From a virus: a DNA stretch of 8,274 bases. The notes under the pieces are model-generated. The model saw nothing but the letters and a program-made list of their open reading frames with translations, did no database searches and was not told the DNA's origin. Position 1 is the first letter of the stretch; the number at the start of each line of letters is the position of its first letter. The stretch lies in the UHGV virus genome UHGV-1341087; one strand, 5' to 3'. Both the position numbers and the translations under genes were made by a program. This document shows, one piece after another, positions 1,956 to 8,150 of the stretch.

Positions 1956-2014
1956 GCGTGATTAACGCTCGCCTGATTACTATCAAGCAACAAGACAATT
2001 AAGAGAGAACATTA

Positions 2015-2119
2015 TGAATACTGGCAAAAATGCCCAAACAGGGGCAGGTTTTCGTTCAACCATAAAAAATATGGCTGATGTTATTATTCAGTTCAAACCT
2101 TACGAAAGAATCAATTGAA
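2015..2119 (+). CDS. Possible 34-aa small ORF (MNTGKNAQTGAGFRSTIKNMADVIIQFKPYERIN)
   Basis: ATG at 2015 with AAGAGAG 6-12 nt upstream; below the ORF-track length cutoff; no recognisable family. May be non-coding leader instead. Confidence 0.25.
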
Positions 2120-2413
2120 CTAATCGCACTTCCGTTTTAAACGGAAACGTACAATCGCATAGCTTAAACGACAAAAGAAATATGCTTGTTACAAATAAAA
2201 TAAAGGCGACCGCAGAGGGCCGCCAGAGGACATGTATTAAACTTGAACGCATCGCTAACAATGCCACATTTGCGGCTGGTGGGCAAAGTAATTTGTATGG
2301 TGGACATACCATCAACACATCCGACCACATGAGCCGGAAAACGGGATATACTCACCGAATCCCTTATAAAACGGGGATCGGGATTACCACCCCGCTGAAG
2401 CAAAAGGCGATAC

Positions 2414-2436
2414 AGACGCGCCACGCGTCTTTTTTT
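2414..2436 (+). terminator. Strong rho-independent terminator inside the alpA-to-replication-operon leader
   Basis: Perfect 7-bp GC-rich stem AGACGCG (2414-2420) / CGCGTCT (2424-2430), loop CCA, then a run of T (2431-2436). Confidence 0.6.
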
Positions 2437-2600
2437 GTATCGACGCACACGCACACCTTATCAATGGTGGGCTGTATGGGGCTGACTTCGGTCAGGCTGG
2501 TTTCCTTTTGCGCCAGTTGTGGTAACCCTGTACAGTCCACCGCCAGCGAGCTTACCACCTCCTGCGGTGGGTATATCCCAACGCAAAAGGAGGCTGCCAA

Positions 2601-2789
2601 ATGGCTACTATCCCTGCCCTCGCACATACTCAGAACGCCTTTATCTGGCGCTTTATCATCGTTAATCCGAGTGATTCCCGCGTCGTTCACGTCGTGGCGT
2701 CAACCGAGCAGGAAGCGCGTAACCGTTGCCCGTCCGGCTGTGTTGCTGTATTCGCTGCCCGTATTCGTCAGGGGGTAAGTCATGCTTAA
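2601..2789 (+). CDS. Icd-like small protein (host cell division inhibitor Icd-like family, tentative)
   Basis: 62-aa ORF with a strong AAGGAGG RBS (2587-2593). The segment RVVHVVASTEQEARNRCPSGCVAVFAARIRQG resembles Icd-like proteins found in P4-like regions (from memory). Its stop overlaps the next ORF's start (ATGCTTAA). Confidence 0.65.
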   Translation: MATIPALAHTQNAFIWRFIIVNPSDSRVVHVVASTEQEARNRCPSGCVAVFAARIRQGVSHA

Positions 2790-2967
2790 GCGATTCCAGA
2801 TAACCGCACGCGCTGTAAATCATCAAGGCCACGTTATTGATATTCGGCAAAACGTGAACGCCACCTGCGTTAGTGCAGCTATAGAAATATTGAAAGAAGA
2901 GTTAATCGGCTGTGGGTTCACGCAGGTGATGATCCGTGTCGTAGTTGAAGTGTCGACTATTCATTAA
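2782..2967 (+). CDS. Hypothetical small protein, translationally coupled to the upstream ORF
   Basis: 61-aa ORF whose ATG lies 8 nt inside the end of the preceding ORF; same strand and operon context; no recognised motif. Confidence 0.55.
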   Translation: MLKRFQITARAVNHQGHVIDIRQNVNATCVSAAIEILKEELIGCGFTQVMIRVVVEVSTIH

Positions 2968-2996: not shown

Positions 2997-3284
2997 ATGA
3001 AAGTAAAAAATTCTGGCTTTACTGCCAGCGGTAAAACTCGTCCTAAATTCATGCACGGCGATATTTACCGCGATAAATACGGCAGCACGGTAATGATTAA
3101 GGGCGTGAGTGAACGACGCATTACCTACCGCCGTGAAGGATACAAATATGACTGCGTGATGCCTGTTTATCAGTTCCAGCGTGATTTTACGCTGGTGGAT
3201 CATCGTGAAACCGTAAATCAGAACCGTGCAGCAAGATACATCCGCAAAATCCGCGAAATGATGGTTACTGGGGGCAAGAAATGA
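2997..3284 (+). CDS. Hypothetical basic protein, translationally coupled to the primase/helicase gene
   Basis: 95-aa ORF; its TGA stop overlaps the downstream ATG (ATGA at 3281-3284); weak RBS, so the exact start is uncertain (alternative ATGs at 3049 and 3093). Confidence 0.55.
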   Translation: MKVKNSGFTASGKTRPKFMHGDIYRDKYGSTVMIKGVSERRITYRREGYKYDCVMPVYQFQRDFTLVDHRETVNQNRAARYIRKIREMMVTGGKK

Positions 3285-5416
3285 AACGCGCACCGAACTT
3301 AAAGCACCAGCCAGCCGACAAAATGACGGAGGTTATCATTTTTGCGGGTAGTGATGCGTGGAGCCATGCGAAAGAGTGGCAGGAATGGGCAGGTAAGCAT
3401 ATTGCCGCCGACAATGTGCCGCCTGTCGTTCTGTCAGATGAACACCTGAAAGATATTACCGGTTATCAGATTATTGATGATAGCCGTCAGTGTGTGCGTG
3501 TTTACCGCGCAGGGCACATCACTGAACGTAGCCTTACACAGATCGTCACATTGCTGGCTGTGGCTGGCGTGAAGACCGTATACGAATATGCGGGAATAAC
3601 TGACACCAGCCCGGCGGATTTATCCGACCAGTTGCCTCGCCTCAAAGACGAATACGAGCGCGGGGAAAGTCTGGTGTTGCCCTTAAAGAAAAAAATCACA
3701 GAAAGCCAGGGCGATGATGAATTAAAACCCCGCGTTGAAAGTCGCGCCGATGGTGTTTTCTGGGTAACGCCCAAAGTTGACAAACAGTCAGGCGAAATTA
3801 TCCGGCCTGAGACGTGGTTATGTTCCCCGCTTGAACTACTGGGAACGGGAACAATCGGTAAAGAGCATTACCGCGTGATGCGCTGGAAAAAACCGGCAAA
3901 CCATGAATCCATCACAATGGCGATCCCGTGTGGTGGCATTGGCGACCGTGACGGCTGGCGGTTGCTTAAAGATCACGGCCTGAACGTGACAACAAACGGC
4001 AAATACAGGGCTATCCTGGCTGACTGGATGCAGTTAAGCGGAAACCATGAGGAATGGCAGTTAAGCACAACAACGGGGTGGCATTTTGGCGCGTACATCA
4101 TGCCGGACGGTTCAGTCATTGGTGAGTCTGAAAAACCGATCCTGTTTACCGGAAAAACGGCAGCCGTTAATGGTTATTCCGTAGCAGGAACGGCGGAGGG
4201 CTGGCGCGATACCGTGGCGCGACTGGCTGGTGGTAATCCGTCCATGATGCTGGGTGTGGCGGTATCGTTATCAGCACCATTAATCGGGCTGGTGGGCGCT
4301 GACGGCTTCGGGGTACATCTTTTCGAACAATCATCAGCAGGGAAAACCACCACACAGAACATAGCATCAAGTTTATGGGGAGAGCCGGACGCGCAACGGC
4401 TGACCTGGTACGGAACGGCGTTAGGTATCGCCAACGAGGCAGAGGCACACAACGACGGGCTGTTACCCCTAGATGAAATAGGCCAAGCCGGAAACGCACG
4501 GGAGGTGTCCACGTCGGCTTATACGCTGTTTAACGGTTCGGGGAAATTACAGGGGGCGAAGGACGGCGGCAACAGGGAGATCAAACACTGGCGCACGGTG
4601 GCAATCAGCACCGGAGAAATGGACGTTGAGACATTCCTCAAAACGGAGGGGATAAAAGTCAAAGCGGGGCAGCTTGTCCGCCTGCTTAACGTGCCGATGG
4701 AGAAGTCTACGCAGTATCACGAATACAGCACAGGAAAGGCGCACGCAGACGCGTTAAAAGCCGCCTGGACAGAAAACCACGGGGCGGCGGGTCGTGAATG
4801 GGTTAAATGGCTGGCAGCCCACCAGCAGGAGGCTAAGGACACGGTAAGGGCGTGTCGTGAACGGTGGCGCAACCTGATACCGGAGTGCTACGGCGAACAG
4901 GTTCATCGCGTGGGGGAACGATTCGCCATACTGGAGGCCGCGCTTGTGCTGTCCGGTCATGTTACGGGCTGGAATGTTCAGACGTGCCGTGATGCCATTC
5001 AGCATAACTTTAATGCCTGGGTGAAGGAGTTCGGCACGGGTAACAAGGAACACAGGCAGATTATTGAACAGGCAGAAGCATTTCTTACTGCCTACGGCAT
5101 GAGCAGGTTTGCGCCTGTCAATTATGACCCTGCAAGCCTGCCGATTTCAGAACTGTACGGCTACAGGGAAAGCGAGGGGCGTTACGGTGAGCCTGTTTTG
5201 TTTTACGTCCTGCCGGAGCCATTTAAATCGCATGTGGCGAAGGGATTTAACAAGGATGCCGTAGCAAGAGCCCTTCACGAAGCCGGAATGCTGAAAAAGC
5301 CAGCCAGCGGGGAAGGATGGCAAATCAGAACACCACGTCTTAAGCACATGAAGGGGGCACGACTAAGGGTGTACGGCCTTTTACTTGCACAGGATCATGA
5401 TGATGAAGGTGGTTAA
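3281..5416 (+). CDS. Replication protein, primase/helicase-like P-loop NTPase (toprim-like N-terminus plus DUF927-type P-loop domain; functional analogue of P4 alpha)
   Basis: 711-aa ORF. Walker A GADGFGVHLFEQSSAGKTTT (about nt 4325-4354) and Walker B-like LLPLDEIG (about 4459-4482); N-terminal EVIIFAGSDAW...IIDDSRQ resembles a degenerate toprim fold. Domain names are from recall, not from a search. Confidence 0.88.
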   Translation: MKRAPNLKHQPADKMTEVIIFAGSDAWSHAKEWQEWAGKHIAADNVPPVVLSDEHLKDITGYQIIDDSRQCVRVYRAGHITERSLTQIVTLLAVAGVKTVYEYAGITDTSPADLSDQLPRLKDEYERGESLVLPLKKKITESQGDDELKPRVESRADGVFWVTPKVDKQSGEIIRPETWLCSPLELLGTGTIGKEHYRVMRWKKPANHESITMAIPCGGIGDRDGWRLLKDHGLNVTTNGKYRAILADWMQLSGNHEEWQLSTTTGWHFGAYIMPDGSVIGESEKPILFTGKTAAVNGYSVAGTAEGWRDTVARLAGGNPSMMLGVAVSLSAPLIGLVGADGFGVHLFEQSSAGKTTTQNIASSLWGEPDAQRLTWYGTALGIANEAEAHNDGLLPLDEIGQAGNAREVSTSAYTLFNGSGKLQGAKDGGNREIKHWRTVAISTGEMDVETFLKTEGIKVKAGQLVRLLNVPMEKSTQYHEYSTGKAHADALKAAWTENHGAAGREWVKWLAAHQQEAKDTVRACRERWRNLIPECYGEQVHRVGERFAILEAALVLSGHVTGWNVQTCRDAIQHNFNAWVKEFGTGNKEHRQIIEQAEAFLTAYGMSRFAPVNYDPASLPISELYGYRESEGRYGEPVLFYVLPEPFKSHVAKGFNKDAVARALHEAGMLKKPASGEGWQIRTPRLKHMKGARLRVYGLLLAQDHDDEGG

Positions 5417-5441: not shown

Positions 5442-5577
5442 CTTGTCCCACCTGTCCCAACCTGTGAAAAACACACATAACACACTGAATTATACTGGGT
5501 TACATCAGAAAAAGTGGGACAAGAGCGGGACAAGTTAAGGTGATTTTGGGACAAGTTAGGAGCATTTTGGGACAAGT
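5442..5577. repeat. Iteron-like array A: six copies of a TTGTCCCA(C) motif (2 direct, 4 inverted) around an AT-rich spacer
   Basis: cttgtcccac (5442-5451), ctgtcccaac (5452-5461); inverted gtgggacaag (5514-5523), cgggacaagt (5526-5535), tgggacaagt (5547-5556 and 5568-5577, 21 bp apart). Lies in the 235-bp gap between the primase and ssb genes. Confidence 0.6.
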
Positions 5578-7727: not shown

Positions 7728-7853
7728 ACTTGTCCCACCTCCCCCCAACTTGTCCCAAAACAGCCTAGACTTGTCCCACCTTACCTAATTTATTTCTAAC
7801 AAAATCAATTTGTTAGGTGCTAGCGGGACAGGTGGGACGGGTGGGACGGGTGG
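7728..7853. repeat. Iteron-like array B: three direct ACTTGTCCCA copies at ~21-bp spacing, AT-rich spacer, then three inverted GGGAC(A/G)GGT copies at 9-bp periodicity
   Basis: acttgtccca at 7728-7737, 7748-7757 and 7769-7778; gggacaggt / gggacgggt / gggacgggt within 7825-7851. Same core motif and same direct-then-inverted polarity as array A. Confidence 0.6.
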
Positions 7854-8126
7854 TTTTGTATATATATACGAAAAATTGCATTCAGGAGGGGGGCGAAATT
7901 CCTGCAATCCATTACTTATGGAACTGTCCGCCCCGTCAAATTTTTACGCCCGCGCAATTAAAAAAATGCGTCACGCAGGTGGGCATGATGCCGATATGCT
8001 TGTCGGGTTCAGCTTTTTAAGGCGGCTGTAGATGTCAGGTTATCCGTGCTCATCCACCAGCCAGCTTCATAGCGGATAGCCGGAAAATGGTAACGGTTAA
8101 AGCTGTACATTTTTGCAGCAAATCAT

Positions 8127-8150
8127 TTTAGTTATACGTTTAGATATACG
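8127..8150. repeat. Second tandem pair of the TTTAGTTATACG 12-mer (candidate integrase arm-type sites near the distal end)
   Basis: tttagttatacg (8127-8138) and tttagatatacg (8139-8150); 22 of 24 positions identical to 174-197. Confidence 0.4.

Follow-up and report, generated by a model that had tools for sequence, protein, structure and literature searches.

What lies in the 645 nucleotides (nt) that separate alpA from the replication genes in the viral genome UHGV-1341087? In the stretch of 8,274 nt that was analysed (the window, to which all positions refer), alpA ends at 1955 and the next supported open reading frame (ORF), an icd-like gene, starts at 2601. An earlier interpretation made from the letters of the window only (the sequence-only reading) described this gap correctly, gave the right coordinates for all the features that it listed there, and took all of it for a long structured leader with an internal terminator, compatible with a riboregulatory switch analogous to that of phage P4. 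It appears that the answer is both narrower and more specific: the segment 2343-2600 very probably constitutes a cassette for RNA-based immunity or repression, of the type found in phage P4 (seqA-CI-seqC) and in phage P1 (a1b1-c4-a2b2-icd).

Two RNA families of the Rfam database match the segment in tandem on the same strand (Table 1). The C4 family is matched over its full length (model positions 1-87) with 78.3 bits, against a gathering threshold of 45; the CI RNA of P4 itself scores 74.9 bits with this model. The C4-like element starts 24 nt past an IsrK-like RNA, which matches the isrK family at 2359-2435 with 55.1 bits (gathering threshold 50). The related c4-a1b1 model (RF03163) scored 19.3, below its threshold of 46.7, and the first element is therefore assigned to the isrK/seqA subtype, which has its own terminator. 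These three models were the only ones to appear over 1900-2700 when E-values up to 5 were allowed.

The predicted structures are well supported by comparison. The minimum free energy of the 88-nt C4 segment is -41.2 kcal/mol (z = -4.0), and none of 200 shuffled sequences folds as well. The C4 consensus, based on 20 homologues including P4 CI and a P1-like phage, comprises 27 pairs, of which 16 show compensatory changes and almost none are broken, and the CCA that follows the closing stem is kept in 18 of the 20 aligned sequences. For IsrK the consensus of 16 homologues comprises 15 pairs, seven of them with compensatory changes. The UUCG hairpin noted before at 2482-2495 turns out to be the first inner hairpin of C4, and the GC-rich terminator noted at 2414-2436 is the third hairpin of the isrK match, so that the small RNA suspected to end at 2436 can be named as a member of the isrK family.

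Table 1. Features of the cassette and of the neighbouring genes in the window
Feature	Position	Strand	Remark
int	260-1504
alpA	1764-1955
ORF 2182-2778	2182-2778		Pfam PF10554 Phage_ASH, E = 2.3e-8, 34.8 versus cutoff 26
Putative -10 hexamer TATACT	2347-2352	+	isrK-like promoter, equivalent to P4 PLE
IsrK / P4-seqA-like small RNA	2359-2436	+	Rfam RF01394
IsrK hairpin 1	2359-2378	+
IsrK hairpin 2	2379-2394	+	a1 presented in its loop
a1 word TTACCAC	2384-2390	+	putative decoy copy of a2, complementary to a'; repeat search
b1 word GCAAAAGG	2400-2407	+	putative decoy copy of b2, complementary to b'; single-stranded linker before terminator
Intrinsic terminator	stem 2414-2430, T/U-run 2431-2436	+	terminator scan; third hairpin of isrK match
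C4 / P4-CI-like antisense RNA, 88 nt	2460-2547	+	Rfam RF01695
C4 closing stem	2465-2481 with 2526-2542	+
C4 inner hairpin 1 (UUCG loop, CTGAC-TTCG-GTCAG)	2482-2495	+
C4 inner hairpin 2, 12-nt loop	2496-2517	+
b' word UCCUUUUGCG	2503-2512	+	hairpin 2 loop; anti-Shine-Dalgarno and specificity word
C4 junction, single-stranded	2518-2525	+
a' word GUGGUAA	2519-2525	+	C4 junction; complementary to a1 and a2
CCA	2543-2545	+	directly after closing stem; tRNA-like 3' end, as would be expected for an RNase P substrate
a2 target word TTACCAC	2552-2558	+	leader of icd-like messenger
Alternative helix partner GCGGTGGGT	2564-2572	+	pairs with C4 3' arm (2535-2543) in conserved alternative helix
b2 target word CGCAAAAGGA	2582-2591	+	overlaps Shine-Dalgarno AAGGAGG (2587-2593) of icd-like gene
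icd-like ORF, 62 amino acids	2601-2789	+	first translated gene of the putatively regulated operon
orf61	2782-2967	+	3' of icd-like ORF
DUF4222 gene	2997-3284	+	Pfam match
DUF927 primase-like gene	3281-5416	+	Pfam match

The two RNAs and the leader of the icd-like gene are connected by two sets of short words. The a' word of C4 is complementary to a2 at 7 of 7 positions and the b' word to b2 at 10 of 10, and the relations a1/a2, b1/b2, b'/b2, b1/b' and a1/a' were all recovered by an unguided repeat search. The b1 word is present in three copies in the window, all of them within the module (0.51 expected), and TTACCAC in five, three of which lie within the module (0.93 expected; none of 200 shuffles reached five). 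In the window the b'-b2 duplex has an energy of -15.9 kcal/mol and the b1-b' duplex of -11.4 kcal/mol, the decoy thus being weaker than the target.

To follow these words through relatives, 80 viral loci were collected with the Icd-like protein and 120 with a conserved word of the C4 stem; a scan of genome contigs with the Icd-like protein gave only two loci, so the viral collection was used. From these loci 60 distinct modules were parsed, and formal pair counts were made on an alignment of 15 specificity types. The 60 modules hold 20 distinct a'/b' combinations, made up of 11 a' words and 16 b' words (TTGGCGT / TAACGAAG being an example of another type), and in every type a1, a' and a2 match one another, as do b1, b' and b2, at constant positions. 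The a and b words assort independently; in locus L024, for instance, the a word is that of L015 and the b word that of L004. Over the 15 types 92.2% of the cells of the C4:target pairing are paired, versus 68.2% in shuffles (reached by none of 500) and 24-51% when the partners are slid, and 12 of its 17 pairs have changed on both sides. The figures for the IsrK:C4 pairing are very similar (91.6% versus 65.4% in shuffles, again reached by none of 500, and 30-51% when slid; 11 of 15 pairs changed on both sides). The a1:a' and a'-a2 helices are both fully paired (100%) in the 15 types, and five of the seven a1:a' pairs covary. Cognate partners also pair more strongly than non-cognate ones, with -8.9 versus -4.9 kcal/mol for a'-a2 and -13.9 versus -6.6 kcal/mol for b'-b2 across modules. 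Family membership, RNA structures, complementarities and a three-way covariation across relatives thus converge on the same segment, and the covariation analysis that had been proposed as a check came out in favour of both the internal stems and the a/b pairings.

Two side observations concern the layout of these modules. In L159 (IMG/VR contig 2879724737_000004), which otherwise carries an Stx-type (Shiga toxin phage) cassette, the heptamer CACCAAT is repeated in about nine tandem copies between a2 and b2, by which the target spacing is greatly changed. Some P4-like loci have a second C4 module 3' of the icd-like gene, giving two RNA switches in series (L015, c4-a1b1 at 1720-1769; L019, c4-a1b1 at 1720-1769 and C4 at 1837-1924; L077, C4 at 1030-1117); the window has one.

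The recurring GGTGGG (2279-2284, 2466-2471, 2566-2571) and CCACC(C) (2387-2392, 2555-2559) segments, from which the sequence-only reading had derived possible alternative pairings, are present but do not form a pairing code of their own. Of these, 2387-2392 belongs to a1 and 2555-2559 to a2, 2466-2471 supplies the 5' arm for the closing stem of C4, 2566-2571 is part of a conserved alternative helix, and 2279-2284 lies within an unrelated conserved block. Likewise, the hairpin at 2552-2573 just upstream of the ribosome-binding site exists, but it is confined to this specificity type and is not a conserved feature.

Could the region nevertheless be a plain intergenic spacer, in which the hairpin at 2414-2436 serves only to end transcription of int-alpA and the remaining hairpins are fortuitous? 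There is no other good plus-strand terminator between alpA and 2414, so that transcripts from the alpA promoter would stop at 2414-2436, and the local promoter looks weak. The terminator is, however, part of the Rfam match and covaries within it, and in P4, P1-like, Stx and APSE phages the same cassette follows genes that are unrelated to one another. Moreover, a passive terminator cannot explain the three-way covariation of the a and b words. The spacer explanation is hardly credible, and the simple role earlier offered for the terminator is not the whole story, as it is an integral, covarying part of a conserved small RNA family; it may stop upstream transcripts as well.

The conserved alternative helix is formed between the 3' arm of C4, including the first C of the CCA, and a segment downstream of a2, and it places a2 in its loop. 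In every module type, P4 included, its partner occupies the same position, and the two sides covary (CCGCCAC/GTGGCGG, TCACCAC/GTGGTGA, CTGCCAC/GTGGCAG and, in P4, GCTATCGCC/GGCGATAGC), with 89.6% of the cells paired versus 30-53% when slid. The helix may couple the folding or processing of C4 to the accessibility of the target. Since the C4 3' arm can pair with 2564-2572 in the read-through RNA, and a1/b1 with a'/b' in cis, one might think of a purely cis-acting attenuator that responds to a metabolite or to translation and involves no trans-acting RNA. Folding revealed no structure that competes with the terminator stem at 2414-2430, and no riboswitch or leader family was matched, even at E-values up to 5. 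The homologues in P1, P4 and Gifsy-1 are, in addition, documented to act in trans (PMC4825925, PMC12197685). We therefore regard a purely cis-acting device as highly improbable.

The sequence-only reading had also named the ORF at 2182-2778 as a protein that might explain the region, and this ORF indeed has a Pfam match to the 'Ash' family. The NCBI Prokaryotic Genome Annotation Pipeline (PGAP) places an ash-family pseudogene at 2182-2562, the frame is open in many relatives, and translation of Gifsy-1 orf45, which lies in this frame, has been reported, with coupling to the downstream gene (PMC4825925). The Phage_ASH match is, however, confined to nt 2353-2622, that is to isrK, C4 and their targets, and the family also matches the obsolete 'cI protein' ORF over the CI RNA of P4 (L003, 8168-8584). 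The ash frame is closed in 23 of the 60 modules, and the shorter ORF from the conserved AUG (2464 in the window, with no Shine-Dalgarno sequence ahead of it) is stopped at codons 15-42 in 12 of them. That ORF is in frame with icd in most relatives and shifted by 1 nt in the window; C4 lengths of 83, 87, 88 and 93 nt imply frameshifting indels, while the substitutions are compensatory in the RNA stems. It is very unlikely that the region encodes an Ash protein, from 2182-2778 or from AUG 2464. Ash is probably the artefact of a translated RNA locus, with the reservation of the Gifsy-1 report (PMC4825925).

How an RNA immunity cassette at this position would work can be outlined after its characterised homologues, on which transcription, RNase P processing, the translational block, polarity onto the primase gene and the direction of the IsrK effect are all modelled here. 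RNase P processing and Rho-dependent polarity of the homologues are taken in part from secondary citations. Transcription would start at a promoter shortly before 2359 and may also come from the alpA promoter. Most transcripts would end at 2414-2436, giving an IsrK/seqA-like RNA of ~77 nt that displays a1 and b1. Transcripts that read through would contain the C4/CI-like element, which would be excised as a stable transfer RNA (tRNA)-like RNA of ~80 nt. RNase P is the likely excising enzyme, because the closing stem and the CCA are present and the C4 RNA of P1 and P7 is an RNase P substrate (PMC2190699). The b' word in the hairpin loop and the a' word in the junction would then pair with b2 and a2 in the leader of the read-through messenger, and translation of icd would be blocked because b2 covers its Shine-Dalgarno sequence. 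Polarity from the untranslated icd would keep the replication genes (DUF4222, DUF927 primase) off. The IsrK-like RNA, with its slightly weaker target copies, may compete for C4 as a decoy or anti-antisense RNA and in this way set the threshold of the switch, and the specificity of immunity would be set by those parts of the a and b words that vary. The P4-CI-like switch that had been suspected thus finds its counterpart in an isrK and a C4 match, with C4 loops that pair over the ribosome-binding site of the first gene of the operon, and the resemblance to P4 is one of homology, not of analogy.

Several points weigh against this interpretation. The isrK score is a marginal pass, only 5 bits over threshold. 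The putative -10 hexamer lies 6 nt ahead of the first Rfam isrK position and corresponds in the alignment to TATAGT in P4, TATATT in an Stx phage and TATGAT in P4-like loci, all of which have a -35 of the form TTGNNN at 17-18 nt; the window has a 3-nt insertion and no good -35, only a GAC-containing hexamer 20 nt upstream of the -10, and the promoter scan did not call this promoter. With a good -10 and no -35 at the proper distance, autonomous transcription of IsrK is uncertain, and the cassette may need an activator, or transcripts that read through from the alpA promoter (1662-1691), for its expression. That the cassette is expressed at this locus is a prediction. The replication protein encoded downstream has no relation to P4 alpha and no ant follows icd, and the ultimate target of control can be proposed from the gene order only. 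Least certain of all the steps is the direction in which IsrK acts, as P4 genetics and the Gifsy-1 study disagree: in P4 the pairing at seqA contributes to immunity, whereas in Gifsy-1 IsrK activates (PMC4825925).

The same promoter raises the question whether the cassette is a decaying relic without function in this island. The displaced -35, the marginal isrK score and an upstream region that is mosaic with orphan fragments would fit such a scenario. Yet each of the six words (a1, b1, b', a', a2, b2) is intact and perfectly matched, the C4 score is as high as that of P4 itself, the same variant is kept in Escherichia albertii (L004), and the whole 645-nt region is covered for at least 80% in 66 E. 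coli genomes. We consider decay quite unlikely. A 15-nt inverted repeat, GGGATATACTCACCG / CGGTGGGTATATCCC, at 2343-2357 and 2565-2579 (93% complementary) ties the -10 region to the stretch that separates a2 from b2. It was tried as a long-range pairing in transcripts from the alpA promoter and rejected; the complementarity is not kept in other module types and is probably fortuitous.

Upstream of the RNA cassette, 1956-2342 is mosaic DNA and not a structured leader, so that the leader proposed for the whole gap loses its first ~390 nt. The homology to Stx-phage cassettes begins exactly at 2343, and the boundary of the cassette is therefore placed there. A block of ~100 nt, 2195-2303, matches 730 E. 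coli genomes with ~80-87% conservation. Relatives that share the int-alpA...icd-DUF4222 backbone have this block as the 3' end, with the terminator, of a minus-strand gene of the YlcI/YnfO family, and this gene with its divergent promoter occupies the position of the RNA cassette of the window; isrK and C4 were not found by Rfam in those relatives. Because the relatives without isrK-C4 carry the YlcI/YnfO gene, the minus-strand hairpin 2224-2205 is best seen as the orphan of a protein-regulator cassette that has been replaced, and RNA and protein regulatory cassettes seem to be interchangeable at the position upstream of icd. Relatives of the YlcI/YnfO type are L086 (2622-3000), L087 (2877-3372) and class-B viral loci such as L005, L025, L063 and L082; upstream of icd they have a promoter region with inverted repeats of the GTGTTCAACAC type instead of isrK-C4.

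On its minus strand the block 2195-2303 holds a small hairpin (GCCGCAAAUGUGGC) besides the terminator-like hairpin 2224-2205, and a small RNA derived from a 3' untranslated region is conceivable; as a structured RNA, this strand had no Rfam match and reached a fold z of only -0.87. The ORF at 2014-2118 (34 codons) matched no family. Its first ~46 nt share 80% DNA identity with the start of the antA/antB gene in the related island L087, which weakly suggests the remnant of a truncated ant gene; no protein alignment was obtained with the AntA/AntB protein of L087. The palindrome pointed out earlier at 2130-2146 is real (TTCCGTTT/AAACGGAA at 2130-2137/2139-2146, 8-nt arms, 100% complementary), and no conservation or function was found for it.

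The independent assortment of words and the exchange of cassettes invite a more far-reaching idea, in which the a and b words, with at least 10 a types and 8 b types, would be a freely reassorted, combinatorial immunity code, and the cassette, as an exchangeable unit, would have taken the place of a protein repressor of the YlcI/YnfO type in this island family. A matching IsrK, brought in by a phage or satellite, could then titrate the resident C4, because IsrK carries decoy copies of the target, and would switch on replication of the island. We think this rather unlikely; if true, it would mean that a helper or competitor is sensed at the RNA level. A search of IMG/VR with the a/b combination of the window gave chance matches only, with no locus that has both word pairs on one strand, and identified no partner phage of the same specificity.

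The window represents a small integrative element adjoining tRNA-Pro, with its start within the tRNA-Pro 3' end (1-50), and an identical copy sits between yejM and yejO in E. coli EF7-18-51. Sequences resembling 2343-2620 were found in 1,519 of 5,426 complete genomes. The first ORF behind the cassette is assigned to NCBIfam phage_ICD_like with 62.7 bits (cutoff 25), its product is 41% identical to Icd of the P1-like phage RCS47 (E = 2e-9), and PGAP also uses the name icd for it in the identical copy of E. coli. Behind it come orf61 and the DUF4222 and DUF927 genes, among which no Ant, Rha or BRO domain was found, so that ant is not coupled to icd, and then the SSB, ProQ/FinO and PerC genes. 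Iteron-like repeats, CTTGTCCCAC and its complement GGGACAAGT / GGTGGGAC, at 5442-5463, 5527-5568, 7729-7750, 7770-7791 and ~7826-7855 flank the SSB-ProQ-PerC block and probably indicate one or more origins from which the island replicates. A 39-nt direct repeat (79% identity) containing TAGTTATAYGTTTAGWTATACG occurs near both ends of the element (159-197 and 8112-8150) and may represent arm-type sites of the integrase.

The cassette explains how a small tRNA-Pro island probably keeps its replication genes silent, and the exact nucleotides that set the specificity of immunity can now be given. It leaves the current mechanistic understanding of these systems unchanged. What is added is the word code of this locus, the breadth and independent reassortment of the types, the covarying alternative helix, evidence for an exchange of RNA and protein regulatory cassettes, and the problem with the Ash annotation: this Pfam/PGAP family is probably an RNA gene read as protein, and is worth correcting. 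One and the same RNA cassette is common to P4-like islands, P1-like plasmid prophages and Stx phages of E. coli, and it is able to stand in for a protein repressor.

One close comparison is with phage P4, in which the same two Rfam matches occur in the same order and strand, isrK over seqA and C4 over the CI RNA. The -10 hexamers align, the covarying alternative helix is present in both, and in P4 as in the window an a2 word is followed by a b2 word over GGAGGCTGCCA..ATGGCTAC before an ORF of ~65 codons that starts with MAT. In P4 itself, a word matching its own a' and a word matching its own b' over GGAGGCTGCCATCATGGCTAC lie 3' of CI and precede a 65-codon ORF starting with MATT, colinear with the window. 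The gene order also agrees, because the downstream gene is Icd-like and the AlpA encoded upstream is 41% identical to Vis of P4, with replication genes downstream in both. The differences concern the isrK-C4 spacer (24 nt in the window versus 107 nt in P4), the lack of a proper -35 in the window, and the a and b words, which implies a different specificity of immunity. Whereas the first ORF of the window is clearly Icd-like, that of P4 had no NCBIfam or BLASTP match and no significant match to the Icd-like protein of the window; we claim only an equivalent position and a resemblance of the N-terminus (MATTLTPSHPEF in P4 versus MATVPTPTHPEF in P1-like RCS47). The replication protein of the window is of the DUF927 type, without similarity to P4 alpha, and the P4 hallmarks sid, delta, psu and epsilon were found neither among the ORFs of the window nor in what PGAP annotates in the identical E. 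coli copy. Strictly speaking, the whole element does not count as a P4-like satellite, as it has only int, the Vis/AlpA homologue and the immunity cassette in common with P4.

The layout of the cassette is also that of the immI operon of P1 and P7 (a1 b1 - c4 - a2 b2 - icd - ant), and the P1-like phage RCS47 has isrK and C4, followed by icd and ant. The gene whose ribosome-binding site is covered by C4 in P1 is reportedly icd, a finding ascribed to Citron and Schuster (1990). In P1, the first gene downstream has its ribosome-binding site covered by a word of C4 (PMC12197685). The P1 antirepressor gene is coupled to icd, whereas in the window icd is followed by replication genes; the locus is not a P1 immI operon, because it has no ant gene after icd. 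P1 is, moreover, a plasmid prophage, and the window a small island integrated at tRNA-Pro.

A third relative is the isrK - orf45 (STnc1160) - anrP region of Gifsy-1 in Salmonella, studied by Hershko-Shalev et al. in 2016, who remarked on the same homology (PMC4825925). There, IsrK acts in trans on its own read-through messenger, and a processed RNA of ~80 nt (STnc1160) lies downstream (PMC4825925). Both loci have an IsrK RNA followed by a region for an RNA of ~80 nt to which IsrK is complementary, with two AUGs 12 nt apart at its 5' end (2464 and 2476 in the window); the leaky terminator and the processing were seen in Gifsy-1. The gene downstream is the antirepressor-like anrP in Gifsy-1 and the icd-like gene in the window. 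The authors read the C4-like stretch as the translated orf45 and IsrK as an activator, whereas in the window the orf45 frame enters icd in a different reading frame and is not kept among relatives.

Stx phages have ~84% identity to 2343-2620 along all 278 nt, the first codons (MATIP) included, and isrK and C4 matches are found in the same order in an Stx phage. In Stx phage P13374 (L002) an sRNA-Xcc1 match (RF02221, 79.6 bits) at 4540-4623 adjoins antB, 3' of the isrK-C4 cassette. For APSE-7, the depositors annotated isrK and C4 in tandem together with the a'/b' regions. The Stx, lambdoid and APSE cassettes have other a and b words and precede regulators of the Rha, BRO or Ant type, whereas that of the window precedes icd and replication genes. 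Published work describes isrK and C4 as the pair of families that makes up the immunity system of P4 (PMC3632133; PMC4825925), Weinberg et al. listed the c4 and c4-a1b1 motifs in 2010 (PMC2864571), and the work of Barquist et al. is among the literature that already describes the isrK-C4 arrangement. With the defining features of C4 and isrK present as far as the sequence can show them, the uncertain IsrK promoter excepted, the cassette of the window is an ordinary new copy of this known RNA immunity system.

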